Virus record (IMG/VR): IMGVR_UViG_3300042386_001493
Coordinates: 1 to 64,000 of that record
Reading direction: 5' to 3' (one strand)
DNA length: 64,000 nt
DNA from: a virus
Taxonomy: Duplodnaviria > Caudoviricetes
In this document: piece after piece, positions 39,671 through 61,778 of the stretch
How positions within the stretch are numbered: the first letter of the stretch is position 1
How the letters are laid out: the number at the start of each line of letters is the position of its first letter
The notes under the pieces: generated by a model
Told to the model about the DNA's origin: nothing
Seen by the model: only the letters and a program-made list of their open reading frames with translations
The model's database searches: none
Position numbers and translations under genes: made by a program

Positions 39671-40327
39671 ATGAATAATGTTTGGATAGTAGTTCCAGTT
39701 ATTTCTAACGATATTGATTTAACATCATATGTTGATAGACTATCTGGCGGCTATACCGCCCCAGAAACATATGAAAAAACTGTTTTTAACCCTGAAACAC
39801 AAGCAAGTGAAAAAGAAGATGTGGCTCATCCATATGCTGGTCAAGTGTCACATGATTTTTCAAATAAAATTATTTTTGTAAACAAAGTAGACGGGTACGG
39901 CGAGTATGAAGGCGTAGTTCATTTGGAAGATTTTAATGATATAGGCATATATCGTTATTGGAATACTGGACTAGAGTATGCTTTTGCAAATGGGGCAGAC
40001 TCAGTAATCTTAACAAATGGTGTTTTTGAATTTGATCCATTTGTAATTAAAGAAGCATATGATGAATTTTCTAAGGGTGAATCAGAGGTTATAAATATCT
40101 CTGATGGGGCTATGTTGTTAGTTTCATCATCTTCTAGCCTACGTGCTGATGAGCAATTTCAAATATGGTTTGGTGATAATGATTTTTATCGTAGAGCAGA
40201 GCCTGTATTAGGATATTCTCGTTCAGAATATTTATGGGGAGATTATTTAATTGATTCTAGTTCTACCGAATCTTTTGATAGCATTGTTGCTTCTGATCAA
40301 GTAAAATATAATGCTAAGTGGAACTAA
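39671..40327 (+). CDS. GT2-like glycosyltransferase homologue, possibly degenerate
   Basis: WIVVPV, WNTGLEYA, LRADEQFQIWFGDNDF; expected NDD/DxD reads TNG; GGAGG RBS before ATG 39671. Confidence 0.55.
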   Translation: MNNVWIVVPVISNDIDLTSYVDRLSGGYTAPETYEKTVFNPETQASEKEDVAHPYAGQVSHDFSNKIIFVNKVDGYGEYEGVVHLEDFNDIGIYRYWNTGLEYAFANGADSVILTNGVFEFDPFVIKEAYDEFSKGESEVINISDGAMLLVSSSSSLRADEQFQIWFGDNDFYRRAEPVLGYSRSEYLWGDYLIDSSSTESFDSIVASDQVKYNAKWN

Positions 40328-41288
40328 TTTTTTCAAACAATCTATTCCACTCTTTAGACCTTAAATCCCAAGAGTAATTTTCATTATAAAAATCTGATTG
40401 TTTTTGTAATTTACTTTGTGTTTCTATAGACCAATAATTGTCAATCTCTTCATTTAGTGTTTTTGCATATGCTGGAATAAATGTTTCTGGTACCGCTTGC
40501 ATTGGCATAAGCCTTGCATATTCTGATCCAGTTTCATATAATGCACCAAGATTAGTTGTAACCATACGACATCCCGCAGCACCAGCCTCAACCATAGCCA
40601 AACAACATGTTTCTTCAAACGTACTTGGGTATGCAAATATATGAGATTCTTGTAAGGCTTTTTTAATTACATCATTTGTAGCGTATCCCATATAATTAAC
40701 GTTTTTCATATTACGGGCTATTTCAAAATGTTCTTCGTATACCCCGTTTGTATGAGCCTCATATCCAGTTCCATACATCTTTGCTGATGAATAAATATCA
40801 AGTTCAACATCATCTCTATTTAGCATTTCAAATGCTGGCAAAAGCATGTCTAATCCACGAAATGGGGCAGAAGTATAAATTAACTTTATCTTGCCATCTT
40901 TTGTCTTAGGTTTAAACTCTATTGGGTCAATAGCATTTTTAATTACATATGCATTTTCAAGAGGGATTTTAAATATCCAGCGATACTTTTCATGTTGCCA
41001 GTGAGAAATATATACAAATGAATTTATGGCATTCATAAATAAGGGATCTGTATATCCTGATCTTAACGATTCATCACTATGAGCCAAATGCTGCCATAGC
41101 AAATTCTTTTTTGTATATTTTACATTTTTAAAATATGGATTAGATAGCAAAAGGTTAATATCTTTATGCTGTGCTATATTAGTATATTTATATAGTCCAG
41201 ATTTTAATATTTCTGTACCGCCCATTGGGGGCAAAGATTCTTCTACCACCCCAATATCGTTTTGTGGAACCTGCTGCAACCAATCCAT
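40314..41288 (-). CDS. Glycosyltransferase family 4 (GT-B)
   Basis: MGGTE, YTSAPFRGL, YPSTFEETCCLAMVEAGAAGC, TNLGAL; start MDWLQ with AGGAG RBS. Confidence 0.88.
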   Translation of the reverse strand: MDWLQQVPQNDIGVVEESLPPMGGTEILKSGLYKYTNIAQHKDINLLLSNPYFKNVKYTKKNLLWQHLAHSDESLRSGYTDPLFMNAINSFVYISHWQHEKYRWIFKIPLENAYVIKNAIDPIEFKPKTKDGKIKLIYTSAPFRGLDMLLPAFEMLNRDDVELDIYSSAKMYGTGYEAHTNGVYEEHFEIARNMKNVNYMGYATNDVIKKALQESHIFAYPSTFEETCCLAMVEAGAAGCRMVTTNLGALYETGSEYARLMPMQAVPETFIPAYAKTLNEEIDNYWSIETQSKLQKQSDFYNENYSWDLRSKEWNRLFEKISST

Positions 41289-41296
41289 GCTATCTC

Positions 41297-42019
41297 CTAA
41301 TTGTAAGTTTTTTTCTGCCAAAACTGTTGTTTATATGAACGAACTATTTTTGATTTTAATAAGAAACCATTTTTACGATTTTCTTCTTCATCAAATTCTA
41401 CAACATCGCTTTTCCAGTCTTCTCTCTTAAATGGAATAACCTGACAGATAGGAGTTCCCTTTTCAAGAATAAAAACATTTTTGTCAATTATGGAATCCAA
41501 TAGTTGAAATGGAAACTCAACACCAAGTTTATACATATCAGTATCCACAACACCAGAAAATGTTCTAAATGGAAGATCGTGCCTGTTTGTTGGGTGCGTA
41601 AACAGACAACTATAGCCTTTTGGAGTAATAACTCTCCATCCTGGTCTCCACTTAAGAAGACTTGAAGAGCCACCAAATGGTCCTGGTAATCCTGGTGCTT
41701 GATCTGGTCCGTGTTGTCCTATAAGATTAATATTTGTTGCCCAACGAACATTAATCATTCCTTTATCATTTTTTCTAAACTCCATATCAAATGGTAATTC
41801 AAACATGTAGCCTGTACTTAAAGCGTCAAGAAAAGGAGAGCATCCCTTTAATGTTAAGTTACTAACTGCAACCCCATCTTTTGATAAACCGTCTAATTTT
41901 TCTTCATCCATTCTTGTTGGCATATCTTTATACCATTGTGGAAGAGACTGAACTGCTGGCTTTGGACTTTCAAACAAAAGTTCTGTTTCTTTATCAAATG
42001 CTTCAAATTGTAATTTCAT
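41297..42019 (-). CDS. DUF6065-like protein
   Basis: PQWYK, GCSPFLDALSTGY, TPKGYSCLFTHP, GVVDTD, GTPICQVIPFKRE. Confidence 0.55.
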   Translation of the reverse strand: MKLQFEAFDKETELLFESPKPAVQSLPQWYKDMPTRMDEEKLDGLSKDGVAVSNLTLKGCSPFLDALSTGYMFELPFDMEFRKNDKGMINVRWATNINLIGQHGPDQAPGLPGPFGGSSSLLKWRPGWRVITPKGYSCLFTHPTNRHDLPFRTFSGVVDTDMYKLGVEFPFQLLDSIIDKNVFILEKGTPICQVIPFKREDWKSDVVEFDEEENRKNGFLLKSKIVRSYKQQFWQKKTYN

Positions 42020-42723
42020 TATTTATTTTCCTGTGGATAATTTTTTTGTAAAACATCCATCCAATGAAGTTTAAATGTTTTTTGATGAGTTACTCTAACT
42101 TTGGGATCCGCCCAAATTTCAAAACCAGAATTAATGGCTTTTGTGCACCAAGAAAGATCTTCACCAATAAGTATAAACTCAGGATTTGTGTCTTTGTTTT
42201 CATCTGTATTGGGTATTGCTACTGGGCCAAACCAAGGTCTTGGCATTTTTTCAAATACTCCTTGTTTAACGGCTAGGAACCCAAATCCAGCCCCAGCAAC
42301 TTTGAATGGCTCATTCTTATCAAGGAGCATTTGTTCTGGCATCATTCCGCCTCTAGGCTGATTATAAATAGGAACGTGGCGATCTTCCATTAAATAGCAT
42401 CCAGAAATAATATCTTTTTCAGAATTATATAATGCAAAAAAGTCTGATGGCTCCCACTCAATATCTGAATCAATCCAAATAATTTTGTCGTAAGTCCATT
42501 CACCACTACATGGCTCTGTCATATTTATATTATTTGTATCCCAGCCACCAATTGTACACTCACGGGCCATTGCAACTAAAGATCCACCTTGATTTAAAAA
42601 GTTCCAAGATAAGCCTTCTTCATTTAGTATGTATGTTGTTTTAAGAATACTTCTCATATATCCAGGAGTAAATCCATTTCCTGGAGTAGCGATTACTACA
42701 TTAAAATGTGGCTTATTTGCCAT
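42019..42723 (-). CDS. Glycosyltransferase (GT-A/GT2-like)
   Basis: IATPG, WIDSDI (DxD), GFGFLAVKQGVFE, GEDLSWC. Confidence 0.8.
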   Translation of the reverse strand: MANKPHFNVVIATPGNGFTPGYMRSILKTTYILNEEGLSWNFLNQGGSLVAMARECTIGGWDTNNINMTEPCSGEWTYDKIIWIDSDIEWEPSDFFALYNSEKDIISGCYLMEDRHVPIYNQPRGGMMPEQMLLDKNEPFKVAGAGFGFLAVKQGVFEKMPRPWFGPVAIPNTDENKDTNPEFILIGEDLSWCTKAINSGFEIWADPKVRVTHQKTFKLHWMDVLQKNYPQENK

Positions 42724-43384
42724 AGTTATCTAACCTTACCTTTACTTTTTTATAATGCGACAAACTTACTGTAGGATCTAAGTATATCTTAAATCCTGCT
42801 TTCTGTGCTTTTTTGCACCAAGAAAAATCTTCTCCGTAAGGAATAAAAATTTCTTTTTCCCCATCTTCTGAAGTCATTTTTTCAAATACTGACTCAAACC
42901 ATGGTCTTTTTATATTTTCAAATACGCCTTGTTTCATTGCTATAAAACCAAATCCTGCAGCAAAAATTTCTTCTTCCTTATTGCTTTTTAAAATTTTATC
43001 AATTTCTGTTGCTGCATCTTCTACTGCTACAGAAAACATTGGTACCATTTTTTCATTAAAATATAAACCAGAAACAATATCTTTATCAGATTCATATATT
43101 TTCATAAAGTCTGTTATTTCCCATCCAATATCAGAATCAATCCAAAAAATTTTATCATATGTTACTTGTCCACGAACTGGGCTATTATTAAAAGGATCGA
43201 GATATTGATCCCCCATTGCTGTTGCTTCTCTAGCGGTACTAACCATAGATGAATATTCATTTAAGAACATATATGAAATACCTACTTGATTTAGATATGA
43301 AATAGTTTGTATTAGACTTTTTACATATTCTGCTTCCATATTTCTACCAGGAGTAGCGATAAGAATATTTACATGTGGATTCAT
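42713..43384 (-). CDS. Glycosyltransferase (GT-A/GT2-like), paralogue of the downstream gene
   Basis: IATPG, WIDSDI, GFGFIAMKQGVFE, GEDFSWC; TAATG-coupled start at 43384. Confidence 0.8.
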   Translation of the reverse strand: MNPHVNILIATPGRNMEAEYVKSLIQTISYLNQVGISYMFLNEYSSMVSTAREATAMGDQYLDPFNNSPVRGQVTYDKIFWIDSDIGWEITDFMKIYESDKDIVSGLYFNEKMVPMFSVAVEDAATEIDKILKSNKEEEIFAAGFGFIAMKQGVFENIKRPWFESVFEKMTSEDGEKEIFIPYGEDFSWCKKAQKAGFKIYLDPTVSLSHYKKVKVRLDNYGK

Positions 43385-44199
43385 TAGTTTCTCCAAAATT
43401 CTTGACCAGAATATTTATTTATTACATATTCAGATAATAGTTCTTGTTTATTTATATTTCGACGGGATATAGAAGATCTTACATCATGTTGTCCTATAAG
43501 TCCATAGACATTATCATCTTCTTTAATGTTGTTTGCTATATTTGAATAATCATGGGTAAATCTTTCAATACCGTAAAAATCATAAATCTTGTTAATTTCT
43601 TCTTCTGGATTTGCTATTAAATCATCGTATTCTACAAAATGGAAATACTTTCTGTTGTCTGGATGCATTGCAAATGCTATACCATATAAGCAGTTATCAA
43701 TAATGCCTTTTGGTCTCATTAAACTATCACACCTAATATCATCTGCTGGACGGTAAAAATTAAATTCCTGTCTTGTCTGTATTTCAGAATCAATAAAATT
43801 ATTTTTATTTGGATTTTTCTTAACTAGACTTATAAATGATGCAAGGATATCTGTTATTCCTCTTATTGGTAGTATTATTTTTGGTTCATATCCAAGATTT
43901 CTTTGCAATACCCCGAAATGTTCAGGCATTGACCATTCTCTTGATTTATCAATAATGATAGGTTTATTTGTATCAGAGTAGTATCCTTCTAATACCCCCA
44001 TAATTGTATTTGGCATTACTACAGGTTTGGGATATGCAGAGTATTGTTCTGATGCCAAAATACTACGTTCTAAATTAAATATCATTCCACACATAGGTGA
44101 ATTTGCTGATGAATAAATATCAGGATTTTGATTTAATATAGATGATATTAGAGTACTACCAGATCTTGGAAGACCTGCCATAAAATAAAAATTTTTCAT
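43384..44199 (-). CDS. Sulfotransferase family protein
   Basis: PAPS-binding loop GLPRSGSTL, DKSREW, R..DILAS, YDDL..P. Confidence 0.88.
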   Translation of the reverse strand: MKNFYFMAGLPRSGSTLISSILNQNPDIYSSANSPMCGMIFNLERSILASEQYSAYPKPVVMPNTIMGVLEGYYSDTNKPIIIDKSREWSMPEHFGVLQRNLGYEPKIILPIRGITDILASFISLVKKNPNKNNFIDSEIQTRQEFNFYRPADDIRCDSLMRPKGIIDNCLYGIAFAMHPDNRKYFHFVEYDDLIANPEEEINKIYDFYGIERFTHDYSNIANNIKEDDNVYGLIGQHDVRSSISRRNINKQELLSEYVINKYSGQEFWRN

Positions 44200-44217
44200 A
44201 TTACCCCCGTAATATCT

Positions 44218-44226
44218 ATTATAGCA
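44218..44226 (-). promoter_or_regulatory. Extended -10 TGCTATAAT
   Basis: Before the sulfotransferase-glycosyltransferase operon. Confidence 0.7.
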
Positions 44227-44246
44227 GAGAGATATTTTTTTTCAAA

Positions 44247-49412: not shown

Positions 49413-51664
49413 TATGCGCTTAAATCCCCTACAGCCACCCAAGTATTTGCTGCTCTTTTAACAATTGTGGCGACAGACCATTGTCCTCTTAGTTTTAAAC
49501 CAGGACTTCCATTTACTGTTGTAGTTGCTGGAGTTACCGCTGCAATTGTTATTTGTCCTGCTCCAGTTTGTAAAATATTTATTTGTGATCCTATTGCAAA
49601 ATTTGCAGTAGCATCTGTTGGTATATTTAGTGTACCCGCAGTTGCTCCATTACTTAACTCAAGCCATTTATCTTTATCTGCTAGAACTACTGTGTATGCA
49701 TTTGTTGTAAATGTAGGTGTTGAAATAGTTAAAGTAGAAGAAGCAAACTCAACTGCTTGTGACACCGAATTAAGAGTGCCCCCAACAAGAATTTTGTCAT
49801 TAGTAGAATCCCAAGCAATTCTGCCATCTGTTGTAGAAGATGTAGTAGATAGAGTAAGGAGTGGTGTATCAATTGTTGGACTTGTTAAAGTTTTATTTGT
49901 AAGGGTTTCAGATACATCTTTAAGAGCAGTTCCATTCATAGAGTATGACTTACCAGAAGCAAGATTTATGTGTTCCGATGAAGTCCAAGAATCTGTAGAG
50001 TCAACCCAGTTAAAGGTTTTATCGGTTGTGCCTTTAAGTGTAATACCTCCGCCATCGGCAGTTATGTCTGTTGGAGTTTCTACATCTCCAAGAATAATAT
50101 TTTTATCTTCAACAACTAGGTTAGTTGAGTTAATATTTGTAGTTGTACCGTTTACGGTAAAGTTTCCAGATACCGTCAAAGAAGGAACTGTAAATTCTCC
50201 AGATGAAGATACATTAGCAAGGATTGTTCCGCTTGAGTTTTGCCATTCTTGCAGGTTAGCGGTTTGTGATGCTATGCCTCTAATAACTTGTCCAATATTT
50301 GTTGTAGCAGTTGTGGTAACTTCCATTTGTGCGCCGTAGTTAGTAGTACCACCAGTACGCATTTTTCCAGTTGATGTTACAAAAGATACACCTGTAATAA
50401 AATCTGAAACAAATGCGCCATCTGATTGAATTCTTGCCAATAGTGTACCAGCACTATCCTGCCATTGTTGAAGGTTGGCGGTTTGGGAGGTTGCACCACG
50501 AACAACTATCGGAGTAATTGCTGCCGTACCAGCAACAAAACTTCCAACGGCAGACAAAGTAAATGTTCCACCTGTACCTGCTACATCTGTAAATCCTGAA
50601 CCAAGAACCGTAAAGGTTGTTGATGTAACTGCTGTGACTGTCCAAGTTCCATTGTAAGTGCCACCACTTACTGATGCCACTGTAACTCGCTGACCTGCTT
50701 GCACAAGTGATGTGCCACCATAGGTAAAGACTGCAACTGTCGCAGATGTATATGCAGCCGATGTGATTGCCGTAGTAGTTGAACCATTGATGCTTGTGGT
50801 AGTCCCTGCGTATATTTGTCCAGCAGAATTAATTCCTGAAAGAACAGTTCCAGCACTACCCCTCCATTGTTGTAGGTCTGAAGTTTGAGTTGAAATACCT
50901 ATTACTTGTAAAGATGGATAACTTCCTGCTGTTGATGTGACAGCAAAATAGGCAGAATTATTTCCTGATTGAAATACTAGTTGGCTTCCTCCGCCACCTA
51001 CATATCCCATTGAACCTGAAATACGTAAATTACCACTTGCCTGGATTGATGCCAACGTTGTACCAGCATTATTCTGCCATTGTTGAAGGTCGTTTGATTG
51101 TGACGTTGCGCCTCTCACAACTATTCCAGTAGTAGTATTATTTATAGGAATTACTGATAATTGTGTTCCTGTTATTAAGGTTCCAAGATTTAGTGCGCCA
51201 GTATTTCTTAGGCTTGCCCTTACCGTTCCATCAAAATTGTGCCATTCTTGCAGGTTAGCGGTTTGAGATTCGGTGCCCTTTACAATTAAACCAATAGTTT
51301 CAGCATTAGCAGTAGTAATCTGTTGCACTCCACCAGTAAAAGTATTGGCGGTAGCAAGATAAGGAACACCAGTAATTGCTGAACCTGCTGGAATTGTTAC
51401 TGTGCCAGTAAAAGTGGGGGAAGCAAGTGGGGCTTTAGCATCTATCTGAGTTTGAATTGCTGAAGTTACACCATCTACATAATTTAATTCTGTAGAAGTT
51501 GCTGTAAGATCAACGTTCTCGTTAATTTTTGGGGTAGTTAAAGTTTTATTTGTAAGAGTTTGTGTATCCGATGTGGTAATAACTTGATTACCATTGACCG
51601 TAGCAGAGTTTCCTTCTACGATCAAACCATTCTTGACCCTAAAATCTTTATTTGTTGTAGTCAC
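49412..51664 (-). CDS. Tail fibre/adaptor protein
   Basis: GTG start; N-terminal KDFRVKNGL; TLTNKTLT fibre repeats; five SQTxxLQ(E/Q)W-type repeats; C-terminal ...WVAVGDLSA domain. Confidence 0.8.
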   Translation of the reverse strand: MTTTNKDFRVKNGLIVEGNSATVNGNQVITTSDTQTLTNKTLTTPKINENVDLTATSTELNYVDGVTSAIQTQIDAKAPLASPTFTGTVTIPAGSAITGVPYLATANTFTGGVQQITTANAETIGLIVKGTESQTANLQEWHNFDGTVRASLRNTGALNLGTLITGTQLSVIPINNTTTGIVVRGATSQSNDLQQWQNNAGTTLASIQASGNLRISGSMGYVGGGGSQLVFQSGNNSAYFAVTSTAGSYPSLQVIGISTQTSDLQQWRGSAGTVLSGINSAGQIYAGTTTSINGSTTTAITSAAYTSATVAVFTYGGTSLVQAGQRVTVASVSGGTYNGTWTVTAVTSTTFTVLGSGFTDVAGTGGTFTLSAVGSFVAGTAAITPIVVRGATSQTANLQQWQDSAGTLLARIQSDGAFVSDFITGVSFVTSTGKMRTGGTTNYGAQMEVTTTATTNIGQVIRGIASQTANLQEWQNSSGTILANVSSSGEFTVPSLTVSGNFTVNGTTTNINSTNLVVEDKNIILGDVETPTDITADGGGITLKGTTDKTFNWVDSTDSWTSSEHINLASGKSYSMNGTALKDVSETLTNKTLTSPTIDTPLLTLSTTSSTTDGRIAWDSTNDKILVGGTLNSVSQAVEFASSTLTISTPTFTTNAYTVVLADKDKWLELSNGATAGTLNIPTDATANFAIGSQINILQTGAGQITIAAVTPATTTVNGSPGLKLRGQWSVATIVKRAANTWVAVGDLSA

Positions 51665-51692: not shown

Positions 51693-54074
51693 TTAGGCTT
51701 CTATAAGCGTCTTATGCACCTTTACTGTTGTCTCGTCTGATGCCGTTACAAGTAGTCTAACATTTCCGCCTGAGTAATCTGCATTAGTTGTTCCTAAAGA
51801 TGCTGCTGCATTGATTACATCTGCGTATTCTGTAAGAGCAACGTTGTTGCCTCCGTCTACGTTAACAAGGATTTCTATGGTTTGAATTTCTGTACCCTTT
51901 TTCATTTGTACTAAATATTTAGCACTTGAGTATGTGGTTGCTGACCAAGAGTCAACTACGGTTGCAGTTCCACTTGTAAGTGCTTGTGTAGCAGTTCCAA
52001 TTAATGCATCTGTCAGTGTAAGCGATGTTGCAGTTGCTGCACCAATGTTTGGAGTTGTAAGTGTTGGAGAGGTGCCAAATACTAGAGCGCCAGACCCTGT
52101 TTCGTCAGAGATTACTGATGCTAGTTCTGTTGAAGTGGTTGCTGCAAAAACGTCCAATTTGTTGTTTGTAAGAGCAACAGTACCTGTAGCATCTGGAAGA
52201 GTAATTGTTCTGTCTGCAGTTGGATCAGTTACTGTAATAGTTGTTTCATGGTCGTTTGCTGTAGCACCTTCAAGAACGATACTTCCGTCTGAAAGGGTAA
52301 GTCCTGAAATTGTTGGTGATGTTAGAGTTTTGTTTGTTAAAGTGTCCGTTGAAGAGGTAGTGACAACATTAACACCTTCAACAGCAATAACACCTGCTGA
52401 AACTCTTGAAATTGTTGTGTCTGTAGCATGGCCTAACTCAACAGTTCCTACACCTAAAGCGGTGGAAGTTGAAGCAACTAATCCACTAATCGGTAAGCCA
52501 GTTGCATTTGTTAAAGTTCCTGATGCTGGAGTTCCAAGTGCTGGAGTAGTTAGTGTTGGCGATGTGAGAGTTTTATTTGTAAGGGTTTGTGTATCTGTTA
52601 ATGTTACTACAGTTGAATCAATATCAAGAGTGTTTCCAGTCTTGTCTAATCCTGTACCCGCAACAATTTGTCCAAGACCAGTAAACTGAGTAAAGGTAAG
52701 TGCTGTAGTTCCAACTGTAATTGCACCATCGTTAGTTAATACATAACCTTGATCAGCGTTTACAGTTCCTTCTTCTACGAATACCGCAAAATTTGAAGTA
52801 AGTTCAGCACCTTCATCACAATCTTGTGCACGATCTGGATTACCAAATGGTCGAACTATATAAATACCGTTTTCTGAAGCAGTTGATTGATTCTTAACAA
52901 GAATACGCTCATTAACAACAAGAGTTACTCCGTCAATAACATCTCCATTGTTAAGATCACTGAAAAGGTTAACGTTTGCAGTTGTTGCTGCACGTACTGA
53001 TGGTTTCCAGTCAATACCTACAACTGCTGTATCAACATAACCTTTTGTTGCTGCATCTGATGAATCAGTTGGTGTACCAAGACCTGTAATCTTGTAAGTT
53101 GCCATACTGACGTTGCCAGTTGGTGCTCCAACAGCGCTTAGTGCAAACTCTGAAGGGTCTACAGAAATTGCGCCTGTTGAATCATCATAGTCAAGACCAT
53201 TTCCTACAACAGTTCCAATTGCATCTTGTGCTCTTTCGTCTGTGAAGTATTTGTTTGTTGAACCTTCTGCAATATCGTCAGATCCAAGAGTACGTGAACC
53301 ACCAAGAGATGTTGATGTACCGTTAATAGTAATTGCTGAGTTTGATAGTTTATCGTTTGCAATTGATCCTGCAAGCATTGTGTTTGTTACAGAACCTGTA
53401 TCTCCAGTTGTTACAACAGTTCCAGTTACGTCTGGAAGAGTAATTGTACGGTCTGCTGTAGGGTTTGTTACTGTAAGAGTTGTCTCGTTAGCATCTGCTG
53501 ATGAACCTTCAAAAACAATGCTTGAATCTGAAAGTGCAAGTCCTGAAACCACTGGGCTTGTAAGAGTCTTATTTGTAAGTGTTTCAGTTCCTGCAAGAGT
53601 TGCAAAGTCTTGATCTGTTAGTGCTGTATTAAACTCTGCAATAGTTCCTGTAATTGTGTTTGTAGTTAGTGAAACCGATTTGTTTGTAAGTGTATCAGTT
53701 GTGTCTTTAAGAACTACCGTTCCAGTTGCATTTGGAAGTGTAATTGTTCTATCTTCAGTTGGATCGGTTACTTGAAGGGTAGTTTCAAAGTCATTTGCAG
53801 TTGCACCTTCAAATGAAACGCTTGCTTGAAATACTCCAACTGGTTGTGTTTCTTTCCAGGCAATTCCATTTGTTGCTTGATCGTCTGCTGTAAGCACATA
53901 GTTATTTGTTCCAACTGCTAGACGAGTTACTGCATCTGCACCAGATGCAACTAGTAAATCACCTTTTGCGTCTACTAATGCTTCTGTTAATATATCGTGG
54001 TTGTTTACAGTTGCAGTTGATCCTTCAACTACTAGTCCCGCTTTTACTCTAAAATCTTTTGTTACGGTTGCCAT
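51693..54074 (-). CDS. Tail fibre protein
   Basis: [10 protein letters not shown]-terminus; AKGDLL motif; three (F/L)EG..A..ETT..PTxDRTITLP repeats; DAATKGYVD; [13 protein letters not shown]. Confidence 0.85.
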
Positions 54075-54556: not shown

Positions 54557-54817
54557 TTAAAGAATATAGTTAGAAAAACCAATCATCTGAACACCAATTA
54601 CTGGTGGATTGTTTGGGCTATAGCCTTGAATGCCAATATTGGTTATGCTTAGTCTAAATGGAAGAATTTCTGTTAATATAACTACCTTCGAATAATTGAC
54701 TAATGCAACAGGATTTGATGCTGGCTTAATGTCTGAAATTGCTATTGTTGGAGAAATTGTTGCTGCTGAAACTAATACCGCTAAAGCAATACCTTGGGAA
54801 ATCGAGGTTGTTGCCAT
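54557..54817 (-). CDS. Small virion-module hypothetical protein
   Basis: 86 aa; TAATG-coupled to the upstream gene. Confidence 0.6.
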   Translation of the reverse strand: MATTSISQGIALAVLVSAATISPTIAISDIKPASNPVALVNYSKVVILTEILPFRLSITNIGIQGYSPNNPPVIGVQMIGFSNYIL

Positions 54818-55263
54818 TATGAATCCTGATCTGTTACTTCACCAAGCATAATCATTTCGCCTTGACATACTGTCCAAATACGATCATTGTCTGTTAGTTG
54901 AATATCAAAAACATCTCCAGTTCTTAACTGTTTTGATTGTACTGCAGATACCGTTACTGTAAATTCTCCTGGATCATCAAACTCTGTTGCATAAGGATAG
55001 ACTGTAAATAATAAATCATCTCCGACATCGTCTGAATACCTTCTAAAATCTCCTTTTATGTCCCAACCAGTGATATCTCCACTTTCATCATTTGTATAAT
55101 CTAAAGGATTTCCTAAATCATCTTCTACGTAAATTCTAAAAGATATAGTATCTCCTATTACAGCAGTCCAGTTAATTAATGGTGGCTTATTGCCAAGGTT
55201 ATATACTGAAGGTGTTGTTACATTTGTAATTGAACTTTCATCAGGGTTTCTATATGTAGCCAT
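54817..55263 (-). CDS. BppU-N-like baseplate/anchor domain protein
   Basis: IGDT..F...FDIQL..WTVCQG...EVT; paralogue of 62406-62747 and 62880-63281. Confidence 0.55.
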   Translation of the reverse strand: MATYRNPDESSITNVTTPSVYNLGNKPPLINWTAVIGDTISFRIYVEDDLGNPLDYTNDESGDITGWDIKGDFRRYSDDVGDDLLFTVYPYATEFDDPGEFTVTVSAVQSKQLRTGDVFDIQLTDNDRIWTVCQGEMIMLGEVTDQDS

Positions 55264-56494: not shown

Positions 56495-56504
56495 TAATTA
56501 AAAT

Positions 56505-56577: not shown

Positions 56578-57168
56578 CTATTCGTGTTTTTTAATACTTG
56601 CTCTAATTTCTTTTTCAAATATATTATATTTAGTAGGAATCCAAAAAGACGGAGTTGTGTATCTTACGCCTTTAGTTATTTCACGCACACCATGTATGTA
56701 CATAGTATTTGATGGGAAAAAAACTAATGTTCCAGCCTTGGGCTTAAACTCTAGTTTGTGATCTGGAAAATATATTTCTCCACCTTCATAGTCATCATTT
56801 AAATATATAACAGCCCCATAATCAACTATAAATGCTTCATTTGGATGCCCCTCTGGATCTTCTCCATCTGCATGTAATGGTTGATACTCTCCTACATCCC
56901 ATCTTCTTATTCCAGCAGAATTAGTTTCAAGTGGTCTGCCAAAATGAAACTCAATCTCTTTTTGTACCCTATTAATTGCATTTAATAAAATTTTATGAAT
57001 CTCTGGTTTTTCTTTATGAAGTTTTTCTGTAACTTTGTCTGGTATGCCAGCCATTGAATTAGATCCCCAAGAAATTGAATCATCAATTGAAGATAAAATC
57101 AAGTCTAAGTCTTCTTTAGAAATAAAGTTTTCTTTAATAACTATATTTTTTGTTGATCCTATTTTCAT
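56578..57168 (-). CDS. 2OG-Fe(II) oxygenase, prolyl-4-hydroxylase-like
   Basis: HAD..YLNDDYEGGE..HGV..GVRY. Confidence 0.9.
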   Translation of the reverse strand: MKIGSTKNIVIKENFISKEDLDLILSSIDDSISWGSNSMAGIPDKVTEKLHKEKPEIHKILLNAINRVQKEIEFHFGRPLETNSAGIRRWDVGEYQPLHADGEDPEGHPNEAFIVDYGAVIYLNDDYEGGEIYFPDHKLEFKPKAGTLVFFPSNTMYIHGVREITKGVRYTTPSFWIPTKYNIFEKEIRASIKKHE

Positions 57169-57179
57169 TATATTTCTCC

Positions 57180-57338
57180 TTAGTTAGGTAATTTATATTG
57201 TTCTGCTATTTCTTTTGCTTTGTCAAAATTTGATACATCAATCATTGAATATAAAACATAGCACAACCATTGGTAAGATGATTTCTCACAATACCCTTTT
57301 GATTGCATTGTTTTAGCAATGTCTTCTATAATTTCCAT
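57180..57338 (-). CDS. 52-aa hypothetical protein (MEIIEDIAKTMQSKGYCEK...)
   Basis: TAATG-coupled to the upstream oxygenase; stop overlaps the RBS of the next gene; below ORF-track cutoff. Confidence 0.65.
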   Translation of the reverse strand: MEIIEDIAKTMQSKGYCEKSSYQWLCYVLYSMIDVSNFDKAKEIAEQYKLPN

Positions 57339-57859
57339 TATTTATATTCCATAAACAAATTAATGGCATATCTAGTTCCTGAAATAACACTATGTGCTAC
57401 GTGTGCATATGGGTAGTTAGAAGGAAATAAAACCATTGAATTTTTTATTGGTTTTTCTTTAATTCCAAAATTAACAAACTCTATTTCTCCGCCCTCATAA
57501 CTATCGTTTAAATAAATAACACAACTTGTTACCCTATTTGATACATGTTTAGATCCATCATCATAATGCATAACATATTTTTGATTAGGCTCATACTTTA
57601 ATGCCTCTATTGTAAAGTATGTTAATTCTGGTAAATAATACATATTCCTATATTGTCCTAAAAATTTATCTATTCCGCTTTGTACAATATTAAAAATTTT
57701 TTCATACTTTTCTTTATCGTTAAAATATATAACAGAGTTAGACCTATCTTCTACTTTAACATTTTCTGGCTTAGACCATTCATACTTATTTATTTCTTCT
57801 ATTAGCATTTCTGGATTTTCTAAAACATCATAATAAAATTCTATACCATTTTTAGACAT
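57338..57859 (-). CDS. 2OG-Fe(II) oxygenase, prolyl-4-hydroxylase-like
   Basis: HYD..YLNDSYEGGE..FPSNYPYAH..GTRY; likely start MSKNG at 57859. Confidence 0.9.
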   Translation of the reverse strand: MSKNGIEFYYDVLENPEMLIEEINKYEWSKPENVKVEDRSNSVIYFNDKEKYEKIFNIVQSGIDKFLGQYRNMYYLPELTYFTIEALKYEPNQKYVMHYDDGSKHVSNRVTSCVIYLNDSYEGGEIEFVNFGIKEKPIKNSMVLFPSNYPYAHVAHSVISGTRYAINLFMEYK

Positions 57860-58568
57860 TGCTATGCCTTTCGTCTTTTGTATAAAGTTTAATTTTTTTA
57901 ACTTCATGTTCTCCAATTTTATTACCATATTGATCGGTGGCACTTCTATAAAAATCAGACCATTTTGGAATTTTATTGTTTTCTAAAATAACATTTCCAT
58001 AATTTGTTAAATTTTTGTGATATTCATTTATATCGTATGGATTGTTATTTAAAGTCATTGTAGATTCATTTAAGTTAAAAAGAGATATTGGCATTACTGC
58101 CATAAAAGGTTCGTTTGCCTTAAAGGTTATTGAAACATTTGGCTTTGTAATTTTCCAAGAAACTGGTATTGGAGAATTCCAAAAACTTGTACTAATAATA
58201 TTAGTTAGTGGCGATGCTCCGTCAATAACTAGGTTTGGTGGTCCAAAAAACAAAAGACTAACATTTGGATCTGTTTTAAAAAACCACCCAATATTAAAAA
58301 TTAAGGTTGCAGTTCCTCTATTTGTATCAACAAACTCTTGTCCCTCTAAAACCTTTATATGATTTCCTTCTTCTGTGTCGTTTCCATCCCATATTACGGT
58401 TATATCTTTTGGAAATGAGAATCCCCAACCCATTTGATTGGTTAGGGATAATGGAAAACAGCGATATGCATGACCATCAAATGTTTTATCCATCCACTCT
58501 CTTTTTACTGGAAGTTGCTCTATCTTTGCTGCTCCCTGAAAAATTTCGTATGCTTCAATATTATACAT
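57852..58568 (-). CDS. DUF6065 family protein
   Basis: REWMD..HAYRCFPL..N.MGW, GPPN, WKITKPN, F.ANEPF. Confidence 0.7.
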   Translation of the reverse strand: MYNIEAYEIFQGAAKIEQLPVKREWMDKTFDGHAYRCFPLSLTNQMGWGFSFPKDITVIWDGNDTEEGNHIKVLEGQEFVDTNRGTATLIFNIGWFFKTDPNVSLLFFGPPNLVIDGASPLTNIISTSFWNSPIPVSWKITKPNVSITFKANEPFMAVMPISLFNLNESTMTLNNNPYDINEYHKNLTNYGNVILENNKIPKWSDFYRSATDQYGNKIGEHEVKKIKLYTKDERHSNV

Positions 58569-59234
58569 TTATGCTGTTGTTCTATTTTTTAAAATTTCAT
58601 TTGCTCCGTGTGCTCGATCATTATAATCAAACATTGTCACTGCTGAATATTTTAATCCTTCTTCTACTGGAAGCGCTGCATGTGAATAAATAAAGGTAGA
58701 TGGAAACAAAACAATATCTCCTTCTTCTGGTTGATAAGTATAATTTAGGTATGGGAAAAATAATCCACCACCAACAAAGTTATCATTTAAATACATGACT
58801 GTTGAAACTGTACAAATATAACTAAAACCATGATCTGAGTGAACTCCAAAATGGTGCCCTGGTCCATACTTTACAAAATTAACTGCTTCTTGATATCTCA
58901 TTTGAATGTTATACATAGAACAATAATGGCTTAAGCATGATTGCAACCTAACATCGATATCTTCATAAATATTTTTTAAATCTGAATTGGCTACAGATGG
59001 ATTATTGGTTATATCATATTTTCTAACTTTAAAGTCTACACAATCTCGGTAATCTTTCATTGTTTGATAGTCGCCTACTTGTGCTTCAGACCACTTAAAA
59101 AATGTATCTTTATCTTTATTATTATCGATTACACTTTCTAATCTTTCTACCAAGTTTAATGATTTATTTAAACTATTTTTGTAAATAAAAACACCATTTG
59201 CTGGATTTAAAATTTCAATATTTGTTGCTTCCAT
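58569..59234 (-). CDS. 2OG-Fe(II) oxygenase, prolyl-4-hydroxylase-like
   Basis: HSD..YLNDNFVGGGL..FPSTFIYSH..GLKY. Confidence 0.9.
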   Translation of the reverse strand: MEATNIEILNPANGVFIYKNSLNKSLNLVERLESVIDNNKDKDTFFKWSEAQVGDYQTMKDYRDCVDFKVRKYDITNNPSVANSDLKNIYEDIDVRLQSCLSHYCSMYNIQMRYQEAVNFVKYGPGHHFGVHSDHGFSYICTVSTVMYLNDNFVGGGLFFPYLNYTYQPEEGDIVLFPSTFIYSHAALPVEEGLKYSAVTMFDYNDRAHGANEILKNRTTA

Positions 59235-59291
59235 AGCAGACCCCTTTTCGTTATTTTAATTATACACCATATAGAGTTTTATACGCTACTA

Positions 59292-59300
59292 TGGTAAAAT
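59292..59300 (+). promoter_or_regulatory. Extended -10 TGGTAAAAT, leaderless spacing
   Basis: 6 nt before ATG 59307. Confidence 0.7.
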
Positions 59301-59306
59301 ATATAG

Positions 59307-59903
59307 ATGATCAATAAAAAATCTATAATCCCGTCTGGATATTATGGCAACTCTAAAGAAAATATAGTAATTATTAATAATTTTATATCTCATGATGATA
59401 TAAAAAAAATAAAAATATTTTGCTCAGAATTAAATACCTTTATGTCTATTCCTGGAGACAATTGGGATAATCGTGTTTGCAATAACTCAATCCTTAAAGA
59501 AATTGCTCCTGATATTGAACAAATATTATCTACTTATCAAAAAAAACATAAAAAAATTATAGAAGATTTTTTTAGTATTGAATTAAAAGATAATGTGCCA
59601 AGCGTTGTTATATGGAGACAGGGTGATCTTCAACCACCACATGCAGATAAAGAAAATCTTGATGGAAGCCCAAACCTATATCCTGAAAACGACATTGCTT
59701 CCTTGTTCTATCTTAATAATGAGTATATTGGCGGAGAAATTTATTTTCCAACACAAGGATTACAATTTAAATTAAATGCTGGAGATGCGGTATTTTTTCC
59801 AGGAGATGTTAACTATCAACATGGTGTTACTGAGGTAACTGAAGGAAAAAGATTTACCTGTCCAGCATTTTGGAATGTTATAAAAAATAATAAAAATATT
59901 TAA
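59307..59903 (+). CDS. 2OG-Fe(II) oxygenase, prolyl-4-hydroxylase-like
   Basis: HAD..YLNNEYIGGE..HGV..GKRF; leaderless-type start. Confidence 0.9.
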   Translation: MINKKSIIPSGYYGNSKENIVIINNFISHDDIKKIKIFCSELNTFMSIPGDNWDNRVCNNSILKEIAPDIEQILSTYQKKHKKIIEDFFSIELKDNVPSVVIWRQGDLQPPHADKENLDGSPNLYPENDIASLFYLNNEYIGGEIYFPTQGLQFKLNAGDAVFFPGDVNYQHGVTEVTEGKRFTCPAFWNVIKNNKNI

Positions 59904-59915
59904 TATTTTATTAAA

Positions 59916-60149
59916 TTATTCTGGTAGTGTAAAAGTATCTGTTTCTGAATTATAAATAACTCCTGCTTGAACAATTCCACCTTCTATAGCAGTTTGACCA
60001 GTAACATCTTTAATTATAGGATTACTCATCATCATTGCATAAAATTTTTCACTTGCTGTAATTACCTGAACAACCTCATTGTCAATTATTAAAGCAATAT
60101 AAAACAAGTTATCTGGCAATGCTGGAACTTCACTATCTTCTATAGCCAT
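59916..60149 (-). CDS. Small acidic protein, possible fibre-associated chaperone
   Basis: ALIIDNEVVQVI...GVIYNSETDTF pattern reminiscent of small genes that follow fibre genes. Confidence 0.55.
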   Translation of the reverse strand: MAIEDSEVPALPDNLFYIALIIDNEVVQVITASEKFYAMMMSNPIIKDVTGQTAIEGGIVQAGVIYNSETDTFTLPE

Positions 60150-60172
60150 TTTTTCTCTTTTCTGTTATATTA

Positions 60173-60181
60173 ATTATAGCA
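60173..60181 (-). promoter_or_regulatory. Extended -10 TGCTATAAT
   Basis: Before 60149. Confidence 0.65.
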
Positions 60182-60198
60182 CTTATGACGCAAAGGCT

Positions 60199-60432
60199 TT
60201 ACCATTTTCCAATCGGACATTTTGAAGCCTCTAGTCTTGTTTTTATTTCCATAAAACAGCCACATTTTTTACATGTTTTTGTTAATTGTATTAATTCTGG
60301 GCAAGATATGCATATGTCTAACCTTTTATTTTTAATTTCAATATCAACCGACTTTGTATTTGGATTTAACAAGTCAAAAGGCGTAGTTCCATATTTTTCT
60401 TTATATTGTTGCCATTTATTTTTTTCTGACAT
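60199..60432 (-). CDS. Cys-rich small protein (DUF6171-like)
   Basis: RLDICISC...CKKCGC...CPIGKW. Confidence 0.7.
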   Translation of the reverse strand: MSEKNKWQQYKEKYGTTPFDLLNPNTKSVDIEIKNKRLDICISCPELIQLTKTCKKCGCFMEIKTRLEASKCPIGKW

Positions 60433-60450
60433 TTTTCCCCCTTTATTTTA

Positions 60451-61050
60451 TTACAAACAGAATAGGAACGTTGTACTTGTACAGACACATTGATAATCAG
60501 ATGAACCGCTAGTGTATACTCCGTCAAAGTAACAATTTCCAAATACATTCAAGCATCCGCCTCCAGCAATAGCACATGGTTGTGGAGAAGGTGGTGGGAA
60601 TGGTGGTGGGAATGGTGGTGGGAATGGTGGTGGGAATGGAGGTGGGAATGGAGGTGGGAATGGAGGTGGTGCTGGGAATGGCGGTGGGAATGGTGGTGGG
60701 AATGAAGGTCCAAATGATGGTGGGAATGAAGGTGCTGGTGCTGCTGGTGTAACTGAACTAGTAGGTGATGAAAAATCAGAGTCTAAAATAGTATTATTTA
60801 ACTTTACTGTAAATGTATATGCAGTTCCATTTGATAATCCAGTTACTACTATTGGTGAACTAGATCCAGTTTGTGAAATTGAACTAGGTGATGAAACAAC
60901 TGTATAAGTTAAAGAAGAATCTGGTTTACCTAAATATGTTGGTACTGTAAATGTTACAGACGCTTGACCGTTACCAGCGGTTGCAGTTCCAATTGTTGGT
61001 GTTCCTGGTGTACGACCAGCAGAAGATAATACGGGTCCTAGTCTTGACAT
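60451..61050 (-). CDS. FN3 domain + polyproline (PPPF)n stalk + six-Cys tip protein
   Basis: PGTPTIGTATAG..VTGLSNGTAYTFTV FN3 signature; start MSRLG at 61050 overlaps the upstream TAA. Confidence 0.85.
   Translation of the reverse strand: MSRLGPVLSSAGRTPGTPTIGTATAGNGQASVTFTVPTYLGKPDSSLTYTVVSSPSSISQTGSSSPIVVTGLSNGTAYTFTVKLNNTILDSDFSSPTSSVTPAAPAPSFPPSFGPSFPPPFPPPFPAPPPFPPPFPPPFPPPFPPPFPPPFPPPSPQPCAIAGGGCLNVFGNCYFDGVYTSGSSDYQCVCTSTTFLFCL
60590..60730 (-). repeat. 12-nt coding tandem repeat encoding PPPF/PPSF
   Basis: GG(T/A)GGTGGGAAT units on the + strand, six consecutive plus degenerate copies. Confidence 0.95.
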
Positions 61051-61778
61051 TATGCAACTAAGTCTCCAAGAACAACCCAAGAGTCAGTAGCACGTTTAAT
61101 ACATACGGCAGATGACCATTGTGCTCTTAATTTTAATCCTGGAGTTCCGTCTACAGTTGTAGTTCCTGGAGTAGTTGCTGCAATAGTTACCTGTCCCGTG
61201 CCTGTTTGTAAAATTGTAATTTGTGCACCTGTTGCAAATGCTTGGTTGGCGTTTGTTGGAATTGACAAGGTAACTGCAGAAGCACTTGACACCTCAACCA
61301 TTTTTCCATTATCGGCAAGAACAAGTTCATAAGCAACTGTTTGTGGGTTAATTGAAAGATTTATAACTGGAGCAGTTAAAGTTTTATTGGTTAGTGTTGC
61401 GCTATTAGTAAGTGTAACATCTGGTGTTGTCCAGGCTAGTCCTGATGCCGTTGCAGAGTTGGCTGTTAAAACGGTTCCATTACTTCCAACAGATAAAATA
61501 GATAATGTGTCATTTGCTGAAGCAGAAAGTAGGTCACCTTTTGCTGCAAAATCTGTTTTTAATAGTGCAGTTGAAAGATCAATTGCAGTTATTTGAGTTT
61601 GTAAACTATTAAGTGTATAAGCAATAGATGGACTTACAAGGTTTGCTGCATTAGAGTTTGCCGAATTATAATTTTCGTCTCCATAGTGATATAAACGAAA
61701 TGCTGCCTGTATGTCGGCAGGATCTGATAATCCTGGAATTTTAGTTGGTATTAACGTACCTATTGATTCTGCTGCCAT
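61050..61778 (-). CDS. Short fibre/adaptor protein
   Basis: AKGDLL and TLTNKTLT motifs; C-terminal ...WVVLGDLVA domain paralogous to that of 49412-51664. Confidence 0.75.
   Translation of the reverse strand: MAAESIGTLIPTKIPGLSDPADIQAAFRLYHYGDENYNSANSNAANLVSPSIAYTLNSLQTQITAIDLSTALLKTDFAAKGDLLSASANDTLSILSVGSNGTVLTANSATASGLAWTTPDVTLTNSATLTNKTLTAPVINLSINPQTVAYELVLADNGKMVEVSSASAVTLSIPTNANQAFATGAQITILQTGTGQVTIAATTPGTTTVDGTPGLKLRAQWSSAVCIKRATDSWVVLGDLVA

Follow-up and report, generated by a model that had tools for sequence, protein, structure and literature searches.

The model we propose concerns the window of 64,000 nucleotides that forms positions 1 to 64,000 of the IMG/VR virus record IMGVR_UViG_3300042386_001493, which belongs to an uncultured siphovirus-like phage (genome of ~105 kb) carrying two fibre modules in this window. 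Each module would combine a stalk protein that ends in a socket, a head protein docked onto this socket, and an operon of enzymes that tailor the head; for this reading, taken as a whole, we see about even chances. The C-terminus of the stalk would be a docking domain similar to that of T4 gp10, with the N-terminal 30 residues of stalk 1 as the presumed virion anchor. The translationally coupled head would dock onto the stalk domain through a short N-terminal peptide, in an end-on joint, since the stalk itself lacks a tip. The soluble enzymes of the operon would modify the head inside the infected cell, ahead of assembly. For the Thr/Ser-rich head 1 they would comprise a sulfotransferase, two GT-A, one GT-B and one GT2-like candidate glycosyltransferases and a DUF6065-like protein; the Pro/Phe tract of head 2 would be the target of four prolyl-4-hydroxylase-like oxygenases, together with a DUF6065 and a DUF6171 protein. 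To judge from the enzyme families only, head 1 would undergo the O-glycosylation of its Thr/Ser residues and then the sulfation of the glycan or of the protein. Head and enzymes would form one exchangeable unit behind a constant socket. The comparisons reported below establish what the domain is and how it folds, in what order the genes lie, and that the heads co-vary and are exchanged with their enzymes; new in this genome are the presence of both modules behind one type of socket and a clean swap with respect to a close relative.

The two stalks share their C-terminal domain. Residues 656-750 of stalk 1 and 148-242 of stalk 2 are identical at 59 of 95 positions (62%, E 1e-33), which confirms, down to the positions of the two genes, the common C-terminal domain announced in a preliminary description of the window. 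Neither stalk protein gives a match in a Pfam scan, nor is there any sequence-level match to known branching domains; stalk 2 matches the minor tail protein family phrog_8780 (E 1.9e-15). In an AlphaFold2 model, the C-terminal 125-residue fragment of stalk 2 forms a compact eight-strand unit with a mean predicted local distance difference test score (pLDDT) of 87, the means of 10-residue blocks lying at 84-98, and mostly above 92, over fragment residues 31-125 modelled without a partner. The comparison of the shared domain with the PDB by Foldseek returns the capsid spike of Pa223 (E 5.5e-6), the N-terminal part of CBA120 TSP4 (E 4e-4), baseplate chains of Klebsiella KP1, an Acinetobacter phage tailspike, T4 gp9 (E 0.016) and T4 gp10 (E 0.026), with probabilities of 0.98-1.0 and template modelling (TM) scores by query of 0.41-0.60. 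The shared domain has the branching and attachment fold of T4 gp10, a correspondence at the level of the fold only. It belongs to a large family: a profile built from 36 sequences finds 39,486 representative proteins at E ≤1e-3 and 21,279 at 1e-10, and among the best 150 of the 39,486 all 37 single-match rows end at most 1 residue from the C-terminus of the protein (our count). By tblastn, 193 phage records, 190 of them from Gordonia phages, contain minor tail proteins with the domain at their C-terminal end, at ~42-45% identity.

The same domain could be seen otherwise, as the distal knob of two short fibres, i.e. a trimerisation or receptor-binding tip, in which case the downstream proteins would be unattached and the overlap of the genes would reflect ordinary packing. 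A domain that folds alone with high model confidence is what this alternative would lead one to expect, and the wider family, in which the domain occurs in tandem arrays and also before other C-terminal domains, is in keeping with it. The fold matches, however, are attachment or branching domains (the N-terminal part of CBA120 TSP4, T4 gp9 and gp10) rather than receptor-binding tips, and the same gene order is met from aquatic phages to the 190 Gordonia phage records. The behaviour of the next gene, described below, also speaks on both sides of the question: its start peptides fall into several unlike classes, as free neighbours of a knob might, but its start is conserved while the body changes completely, and bodies of these kinds also occur in one chain with a fibre anchor or with the domain. 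On balance we consider the knob quite unlikely.

The socket model draws on the way in which stalk and head genes are joined. Both stalk-head junctions read GCATAATG, the stop and the start having one base in common, and the coupled stop-start that had been described for the two cargo genes is thus exact. The head frame is open for 10 codons upstream of the ATG in both cassettes, because the last residues of the stalk, which are read in another frame, are conserved; the joining of stalk and head by a frameshift at TAATG has low odds. The start peptides of the two heads, MPILGITAS for head 1 and MSRLGPVLSS for head 2, had been called similar. Within the window this likeness is weak (M-x-x-L-G) and does not exceed chance, and it gains weight because the relatives repeat the pattern, not from the window alone. 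A scan of viral contigs with the shared domain gave 54 loci, many of them near-duplicates. The domain runs to within 0-3 residues of the stop codon in all 54, and in 42 of the 54 the start of the next gene overlaps the stop of the domain gene (28 at TAATG, 9 with a start 3 bases earlier and 5 with a GTG start 7 bases earlier), a proportion that stands without a baseline, stop-start overlaps being common in phages. A gap of 2-32 nucleotides separates the two genes in 9 of the remaining loci, and 3 have no close gene (a contig end, and gaps of 126 and 363 nucleotides).

The next genes begin with related short peptides, such as MPILGI.AS, MPIIPGVSAS, MLNLLGAAAS, MFGLFGF and MPLPPISSG, with further relatives of these peptides in L007, L024, L026 and L043, and the bodies behind these starts are wholly unlike: BNR propellers, FN3 domains with aromatic-proline repeats, FN3 domains with glycine-rich sequence, or glycine-rich sequence alone. 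Thus MPILGI.AS precedes a BNR propeller in the window and FN3-plus-glycine-rich bodies in L013, L016 and L020. In the Gordonia phages Lilbeanie (L057:3180-5890) and Gaea (L058:4032-5863), a minor tail protein ending in the domain is followed by a minor tail protein of ~200 residues, whose gene starts 2 nucleotides past the stop or overlaps it by 4 nucleotides and begins with MVLPNARFR or VIPGVRFR; these two cultured phages might be used to study the joint in the laboratory. In two relatives the parts are fused. A 705-residue protein (L066:6349-8466, minus strand) joins the fibre anchor motif MADKNFKVKNGL to two blocks of BNR repeats like those of head 1; it is without the docking domain and lies beside a sulfotransferase, a GT-A and a DUF6065-like gene. 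In P0098, the docking domain and a glycine-rich body are found in one chain. These fusions support the idea that stalk and head belong to a common fibre. Taken together with the gp10-like fold, the published docking partners and the recurring gene order, they make it probable that the start peptide would bind the stalk domain, as the preliminary description had imagined, although the support for such a socket is indirect. The expectation that genes ending in this domain would be followed in relatives by genes starting with M(P/S)xLG came true for the coupled order, which recurs, and in part for the peptide, of which there are several classes.

The heads themselves are of two kinds. Head 1 contains 32 Asp-box-like motifs with a period of 40 residues, arranged as five blocks of six plus two single motifs; its Thr content is 18% and it gives a weak Kelch match, and we read it as a probable string of about five BNR-type β-propellers. 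Head 2 has 44 Pro and 18 Phe in its 199 residues and an fn3 match in Pfam that stays below the cut-off (E 0.0022); its residues 10-101 are 61% identical to a head of the close relative G001. The aromatic-proline heads of relatives end in a domain of ~150 residues, which starts with a Cys and finishes with ...HNK and which weakly resembles Hint_2, PT-HINT and Intein_splicing (E 8e-5 to 9e-3, each under the cut-off); this suggests that the repeat tract might undergo self-cleavage or be transferred where it ends. Head 2 of the window is without this Hint-like domain and has instead a 45-residue tail with 7 Cys.

If the enzymes act on the heads, the type of enzyme should follow the type of head, and this is what the relatives show. 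The 54 domain loci were scored with the enzymes of the window (phmmer), their heads being grouped by near-identity, by eye. Downstream of the head, within 6 kb, oxygenase genes occur in 8 of 9 groups of aromatic-proline heads versus 0 of 11 groups of glycine-rich heads (Fisher p 7e-5, an upper bound on the evidence because the loci are kin by descent), and in these aromatic-proline groups the prolyl-4-hydroxylase-like oxygenases come with DUF6065. This count leaves out L003-L006, L012, L021, L028-L030, L035, L040, L052 and L054-L056; among these, DUF6065-like genes come after aromatic repeats of another kind in L012 and L035, and the oxygenases of L028 have no head next to them.

The reverse searches, which start from the enzymes, agree. 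They were made with alignment-based scans, the scans with a single sulfotransferase or DUF6065 protein having reached mainly close relatives. The profile of the best-conserved oxygenase paralogue finds 531 relatives, and in the best 80 loci that were kept an aromatic-proline open reading frame (ORF) is present in 51, the docking domain in 49 and DUF6065, the most faithful companion of the oxygenases, in 76. Where the locus extends 4 kb or more beyond the first enzyme gene on its upstream side, the repeat ORF is found in 35 of 44 loci and the docking domain in 33 of 44; the repeat ORF is found in 0 of 28 comparison loci (309 kb; p 2e-12, likewise an upper bound, 16 of the 28 having moreover been preselected as non-repeat). 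The repeat ORF starts within 200 nucleotides of the end of a docking-domain gene in 34 of 53 cases, and the median gap between the repeat gene and the first enzyme gene is 318 nucleotides. The relatives hold up to 13 oxygenase paralogues, and the window cassette four.

It is at these loci that one may ask whether head and enzymes could make a product foreign to the virion, such as an extensin-like or glycoprotein polymer that, once modified, would be released or laid on the host surface. Such a product would account for the 13 of 51 repeat-bearing oxygenase loci in which the docking domain is absent, and the Hint-like ends of the repeat heads of relatives, weak and below cut-off as their matches are, could release or transfer the tract. 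The close spacing of repeat and docking-domain genes in the 34 of 53 cases just mentioned argues the other way, as do the FN3 and propeller domains of the heads, which are typical of fibre proteins, the fusion of BNR repeats to a fibre anchor in L066, and neighbouring genes that code for fibre proteins. We regard a non-virion product as very unlikely.

For the propeller type of head, the sulfotransferase scan returned 12 loci. In eight of them, from close relatives at 96-99% identity, the gene order is unchanged; in L066 and L070, whose sulfotransferase is 60% identical, it is again accompanied by a GT-A gene, a DUF6065-like gene and BNR proteins, and two loci at 33% identity have no BNR protein. 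With the profile of the GT-A paralogues, 80 loci were collected: a head-1-like Asp-box protein is encoded in 6 of the 14 loci with at least 40% identity and in 0 of the other 66, and in 5 of these 6 it is directly upstream of the GT-A gene, with 1-89 nucleotides between them. The docking domain is present in 0 of the first 18 GT-A loci, and the pairing of propeller and glycosyltransferase is therefore independent of the socket.

The clearest case is provided by G001, a 108-kb relative that is 99% complete and whose ribonucleotide reductase, portal and module-2 DUF6065 proteins are respectively 87%, 76% and 77% identical to those of the window. Between its second stalk and its ribonucleotide reductase gene, G001 encodes a 434-residue head with two FN3 domains, a Pro/Phe tract and a Hint-like end, and behind it two oxygenases, DUF6065 and a DUF6065-like gene. 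At the equivalent site, the window has the BNR head, the sulfotransferase, two GT-A, the DUF6065-like, the GT-B and the GT2-like genes. Different heads with different enzyme sets at one and the same site have therefore been exchanged together behind the socket. This exchange and the changing bodies behind kept starts give good support to the word "swappable" in the preliminary description, and its expectation that enzyme type would co-vary with cargo type is borne out by the 8 of 9 against 0 of 11 groups, by the reverse searches and by the G001 swap. That the enzymes modify the neighbouring head is backed by co-variation, two reverse searches and a natural swap, all of which belong to comparative genomics; we slightly favour the view that the heads would be the substrates of their neighbours, and infer hydroxyproline for the one, O-glycans and sulfate for the other.

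The identity of the enzymes is compatible with such roles. A Cys-rich protein, four 2-oxoglutarate (2OG)-Fe(II) oxygenases and DUF6065 had been listed behind the polyproline head, and all are there with scores above the Pfam cut-offs, the four PF13640 genes exceeding the 27-bit limit. In the scan of the 86-kb record, all 4 PF13640 genes and both genes of the DUF6065 family fall inside the two cassettes. Among solved structures, the oxygenases come closest to the collagen-type prolyl 4-hydroxylases of Bacillus anthracis, a chlorovirus and Chlamydomonas (E 1e-6 to 1e-4); for the best-conserved paralogue the nearest are 3itq and 5hv0 (E 9e-5), and in its group His132, Asp134 and His185, the His-x-Asp...His iron triad, are invariant in 17 sequences. 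The paralogue whose GTG start overlaps the DUF6065 gene by 92 bases probably begins further in for this reason, and its relatives start with MNKNGIEFYY or MSKNGIEFYY, at an ATG that is internal in the window gene. Because the iron triad is kept and the nearest relatives are prolyl 4-hydroxylases, prolyl hydroxylation of the Pro/Phe tract would be the simplest guess; the oxygenases could act instead on the aromatic residues of the tract.

The DUF6065 protein is of another nature. Its AlphaFold2 model (pLDDT 79) has dUTPases as best Foldseek matches (E 3e-4, TM by target 0.6-0.7, low identity), and in the alignment of the family only one Trp, Cys, Gly and Pro are invariant. The idea that it might be a further cupin-type oxygenase was rejected, since the His-x-Asp...His motif is absent and the fold is dUTPase-like. 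A sequence search of solved structures gave no match to DUF6065, and tblastn against 50,697 GenBank phage records none either, so that it has no cultured carrier in that collection. In the limited collection of literature searched, no paper on DUF6065 or on Pro-Phe/Tyr repeat strings was found, and nothing relevant on a phage prolyl hydroxylase accompanying proline-rich tail fibres. Homologues of the Cys-rich DUF6171 protein occur in L008-L011, L015, L024, L032, L072, L077 and L080-L086.

For head 1, the enzyme set that had been described survives in part. The sulfotransferase and the GT1/GT4-type glycosyltransferase exceed the Pfam cut-offs, whereas the "two GT2" are GT-A-like paralogues for which GT2 membership is unproven: they have no Pfam match, their likeness to a glycosyltransferase PHROG is weak, their DxD and ED motifs are invariant in 11 sequences, and paralogue a matches the STIV A197 chain 2c0n at E 0.029. 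The DUF6065-like and convergent genes are present as announced, the first with a Pfam score below the cut-off and the second as GT2 by the ESM Atlas only. The DUF6065-like protein aligns with DUF6065 and has its four invariant residues. The convergent gene, which gives no match in Pfam, PHROG or NCBIfam, recurs at this position in L059-L065 and L067; its likeness to GT2 in language-model and model-structure comparisons is a lead. The GT-B gene probably starts at an internal ATG (MDWLQQ...), because its relatives begin there. In the NCBIfam scan of ten cassette and neighbouring proteins, the only matches of use were those of GT4 type for the GT-B protein and, for the sulfotransferase, its sole likeness, to the Nod-factor sulfotransferase NoeE over the first 27 residues.

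The preliminary description had compared this organization with the logic of a cluster for ribosomally synthesized and post-translationally modified peptides. This comparison holds as an analogy only: Pfam scans of the genes in both cassettes brought up neither a leader-recognition nor a leader-peptidase family. Membership in such a cluster was rejected, the heads being proteins of 199 and 1721 residues with folded domains and not short leader-bearing precursors.

Besides the kinship of the loci and the missing baseline mentioned above, several observations weigh against the model. On the side of the socket, homology with gp10 is unproven because the fold match is moderate, with the TM scores given above and 11-16% identity. 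Proteins of the wider family carry up to 22 tandem copies of the domain (P0004, 3206 residues) and might be multi-socket hubs or plain shaft; since the domain is terminal here and arrayed in tandem elsewhere, it may also be a general building block of fibres. In the anchor-branch systems compared below, the protein ends in its own tip and carries the branching domain close to its N-terminus; here the domain is terminal. A second, independently fetched set of loci adds a basic class of start peptide, M..SKKRG.KSSAQDNF, and a class with KDSGGKKP, and with several unlike classes there is no single universal plug peptide, which fits the remark, in the excerpt consulted of PMC6872550, that the peptide differs between phage groups. 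On the side of the enzymes, the group of L007 (5 loci) has a repeat head with no oxygenase within ~5 kb downstream, although in four of its five loci (L008-L011) an oxygenase and DUF6171 are encoded upstream, on the opposite strand; the repeat ORF, by the criterion used, is missing from 9 of the 44 oxygenase loci whose upstream part is long enough, and some of these have the stalk gene right beside the oxygenases; and GT-A relatives are also found near glycine-rich heads (L013, L016, L020). In L118, L136 and L119, a domain-bearing stalk gene adjoins the oxygenase cluster with no head between them, an arrangement that the model does not explain. Finally, to our knowledge a Pro-Pro-Pro-Phe tract is not a recognized substrate of prolyl 4-hydroxylases.

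On another view the enzymes are host-directed auxiliary genes: the glycosyltransferases and the sulfotransferase would target the host surface or phage DNA, the oxygenases 2-oxoglutarate metabolism or nucleic acids, and all would lie beside the fibres only as part of a hypervariable island. Precedents weigh in its favour and against ours: in the part consulted, PMC7029224 reads the glycosyltransferases of host-recognition clusters as modifiers of the O-chain that prevent co-infection, and PMC3037559, seen to the same extent, links cyanophage 2OG-Fe(II) oxygenases to nitrogen status or DNA repair. The NoeE likeness of the sulfotransferase would suit it, as would the occurrence of GT-A relatives near other types of head. 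A mere hot-spot of insertion, however, does not predict that enzyme type tracks the head (8 of 9 versus 0 of 11 groups; 35 of 44 versus 0 of 28 loci), nor that a BNR gene directly precedes GT-A in 5 loci without the stalk domain, nor the joint exchange of head and enzymes at one site. The nearest solved relatives of the oxygenases are, moreover, protein prolyl hydroxylases and not enzymes of nucleic acids or small molecules, and no cassette enzyme matched a membrane-protein family in Pfam, the one resource used for this point, no membrane-segment predictor having been run. We hold the host-directed explanation to be unlikely.

The features of the two modules and of their neighbours are collected in Table 1.

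Table 1. Genes of the two fibre modules, neighbouring genes and Hint-like head ends of relatives
Feature	Positions	Strand	Matches and remarks
196-aa protein, precedes stalk 2	61816..62406	-	no Pfam or PHROG family
Stalk (adaptor) 2, 242 aa	61050..61778	-	docking domain: last ~95 residues, about 61053-61337
Head 2, 199 aa	60451..61050	-	ATG at 61050; N-peptide, weak FN3, (PPPF)n-type tract, Cys-rich 45-residue tail
DUF6171, Cys-rich 77-aa protein	60199..60432	-	PF19668 E 2.8e-7, above cut-off; phrog_13558
77-aa ORF	59916..60149	-	no family match; homologues in L072, L083, L084
2OG-Fe(II) oxygenase	59307..59903	+ (opposite strand)	PF13640 E 1.6e-7, above cut-off
2OG-Fe(II) oxygenase, best-conserved paralogue	58569..59234	-	PF13640 E 5.6e-11
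DUF6065 protein, 238 aa	57852..58568	-	PF19541 E 2.8e-40, 138.7 bits (cut-off 26.6)
2OG-Fe(II) oxygenase, GTG start overlapping DUF6065	57338..57943	-	PF13640 E 2.7e-15; 3itq, 5hv0 E 1.4e-6; chlorovirus-type 5c5t E 9e-4
2OG-Fe(II) oxygenase	56578..57168	-	PF13640 E 1.4e-9
793-aa fibre protein	51693..54074	-	phrog_38058 tail fiber E 1.4e-39; phrog_2647 head decoration E 4.8e-36
Stalk (adaptor) 1, 750 aa	49412..51664	-	docking domain: last ~95 residues, about 49415-49699
Head 1, 1721 aa	44247..49412	-	ATG at 49412; MPILGITAS, then Thr/Ser/Asn-rich propellers (probable)
Sulfotransferase	43384..44199	-	Sulfotransfer_3 E 7.5e-13 (49.7 bits, cut-off 27); Sulfotransfer_1 E 1.3e-10; both above cut-off
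GT-A-like candidate, paralogue a	42713..43396	-	phrog_1574 E 9.6e-52; glycosyltransferase phrog_34859 E 9.5e-6
GT-A-like candidate, paralogue b	42019..42723	-	phrog_1574 E 6.6e-49; phrog_34859 E 5.7e-5; 43% identical to paralogue a
Distant DUF6065-like protein	41297..42019	-	phrog_7084 E 4.7e-49; Pfam DUF6065 E 0.005, 16.8 bits, below cut-off
GT-B glycosyltransferase (GT1/GT4 type)	40314..41321	-	Glyco_trans_1_4 E 1.4e-10; phrog_2170 E 3.6e-40
Convergent 218-aa gene	39671..40327	+	ESM Atlas neighbours named glycosyltransferase family 2, TM ~0.7
Hint-like head ends (relatives)	L024:5770-6720, L042:2791-4128, L007:1901-2788, L038:1075-1935, L026:4767-5678, L088:14345-15649 (minus)		weak matches, below cut-off

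The record from which the window is taken has 86,251 bases, is judged 81% complete and has a GC content of ~35%; the window is its first 64 kb, and nearly all its genes lie on the minus strand. In the order of transcription, small conserved proteins are followed by fibre module 2 (61.8-56.6 kb), an SLT-type lysozyme gene on the plus strand, small proteins and the 793-residue fibre, fibre module 1 (51.7-39.7 kb), ribonucleotide reductase, a 1215-residue protein, then portal, protease and major capsid protein, the tail genes and DNA polymerase. The fibre modules are thus upstream of the head (capsid) genes and not behind the tape measure gene. This gene order, with its tail genes, and the tape measure protein of 2556 residues (16526-24196), which implies a very long tail, designate a long-tailed phage.

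The 793-residue fibre and stalk 1 have 18 of their 30 N-terminal residues in common (E 5e-8), and this stretch looks like a putative virion anchor; residues 3-30 of stalk 1 are 71% identical to a fibre of G001, and the start of stalk 2 differs. Hints as to the site of attachment are mixed, the middle of the fibre matching both "tail fiber" and "head decoration" PHROGs and the best fold match of the shared domain being a capsid spike. The 196-residue protein that precedes stalk 2 has homologues directly before the stalk gene in L072, L079, L080, L083, L085 and L086, and is 34% identical to its counterpart in G001.

Other features of the neighbourhood deserve mention. The ribonucleotide reductase gene (37421-39454), which forms the constant right border of the swapped cassette, lies between a fibre module and the portal gene, within the structural region. 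Just upstream of the portal gene, the 1215-residue protein (33738-37385) has no PHROG at E 1e-5 and one weak NCBIfam match; G001 has a counterpart at that position, 37% identical over the full length, and L173 and L174 have one there as well. Three small paralogues of phrog_1084 flank the fibre modules (62406-62747, 62880-63281 and 54817-55263).

If the model is correct, the principle of a branching domain and a docking peptide, described so far in coliphages and Klebsiella phages, would extend to an unannotated family of 39,486 members, and would aid the annotation of fibre loci in uncultured phages and actinophages. It would also provide concrete substrates for the phage arrays of 2OG-Fe(II) oxygenases and for the glycosyltransferases and sulfotransferases of fibre islands, which the current papers, in the parts consulted (PMC3037559, PMC7029224), assign to host metabolism or to the remodelling of the host surface; such arrays, for which an explanation has long been wanting, and many "host recognition cluster" glycosyltransferases, would gain a defined phage-protein substrate. 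The exchange between G001 and the window would be a natural experiment and the clearest comparative argument for the phage-encoded tailoring of receptor-binding proteins. Could aquatic phages more generally diversify their host-binding apparatus both chemically and by domain swap, by means of units of head plus tailoring enzymes placed behind a gp10-like socket? We hold this to be possible, somewhat short of even, the examples being the hydroxylated Pro/Phe(Tyr) polymers with their banks of oxygenases and their partner of dUTPase fold, and the glycosylated or sulfated BNR propellers.

The proposed socket is best compared with the anchor-branch systems. In the excerpt consulted, PMC6872550 describes how, in G7C, CBA120, K1-5 and Klebsiella phages, a secondary receptor-binding protein is attached to a gp10-like domain by its short, conserved N-terminal peptide, and according to the part seen of PMC13352976 the loss of the branching domain or of the docking peptide abolishes, in Klebsiella podophages, the incorporation of the second protein. 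Examples from these two sources are gp66/gp63.1 of G7C, TSP4/TSP2 with TSP1/TSP3 of CBA120, the receptor-binding proteins RBP1/RBP2 of Klebsiella KP32/K11/KP34, and the gp37 adapter of K1-5. The fibre modules of the window resemble them in their small all-β gp10-like domain, in a next gene that combines a short conserved peptide with a varied body, and in the interchangeability of the heads; a first protein that is only an adaptor is known there too, from K1-5 gp37 and G7C-like orthologues (PMC6872550, same excerpt). They differ in that the domain forms the extreme C-terminus of a long stalk, with a joint that would be end-on and not a side branch, in their hydrophobic MPILGI.AS and other classes of peptides, in the lack of a sequence-level domain match, and in the wider range of hosts over which the family extends, through aquatic uncultured phages and Gordonia phages. 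The host recognition cluster of pelagimyophages and cyanomyophages, as it appears in the part consulted of PMC7029224, is likewise a hypervariable island of fibre genes, glycosyltransferases and other enzymes; in the window, by contrast, the type of enzyme tracks the type of head, both are swapped jointly, and the phage is a long-tailed one that is not of the T4 group.

As to the enzymes, the module-2 oxygenases are similar to the viral and bacterial collagen-type prolyl 4-hydroxylases (3itq, 5hv0, 5c5t, 2jig) by their PF13640 domain, their iron triad and the proline-rich repeat gene next door. The chlorovirus prolyl 4-hydroxylase acts on the virus's own proline-rich repeats. The differences are a low identity (E 1e-6 to 1e-4 over 65-80 residues), the four paralogues per cassette, the DUF6065 companion, and a candidate substrate that is a Pro/Phe(Tyr) tract instead of X-Pro-Gly or Pro-Ala-Pro-Lys. 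In work attributed to Freeman et al. in 2023, the capsid and tail-tube proteins of mycobacteriophages were reportedly measured to be glycosylated by phage glycosyltransferases; here too phage glycosyltransferase genes stand beside structural genes, but the candidate target would be the fibre head, and a sulfotransferase is added. Finally, the long tail fibre of T4 is built of gp34, gp35, gp36 and gp37 joined end to end. Like it, the fibres proposed here would consist of separately encoded segments assembled head-to-tail, roughly in the order of their genes; unlike it, they would use other joint domains and would be accompanied by tailoring enzymes, which T4 does without.

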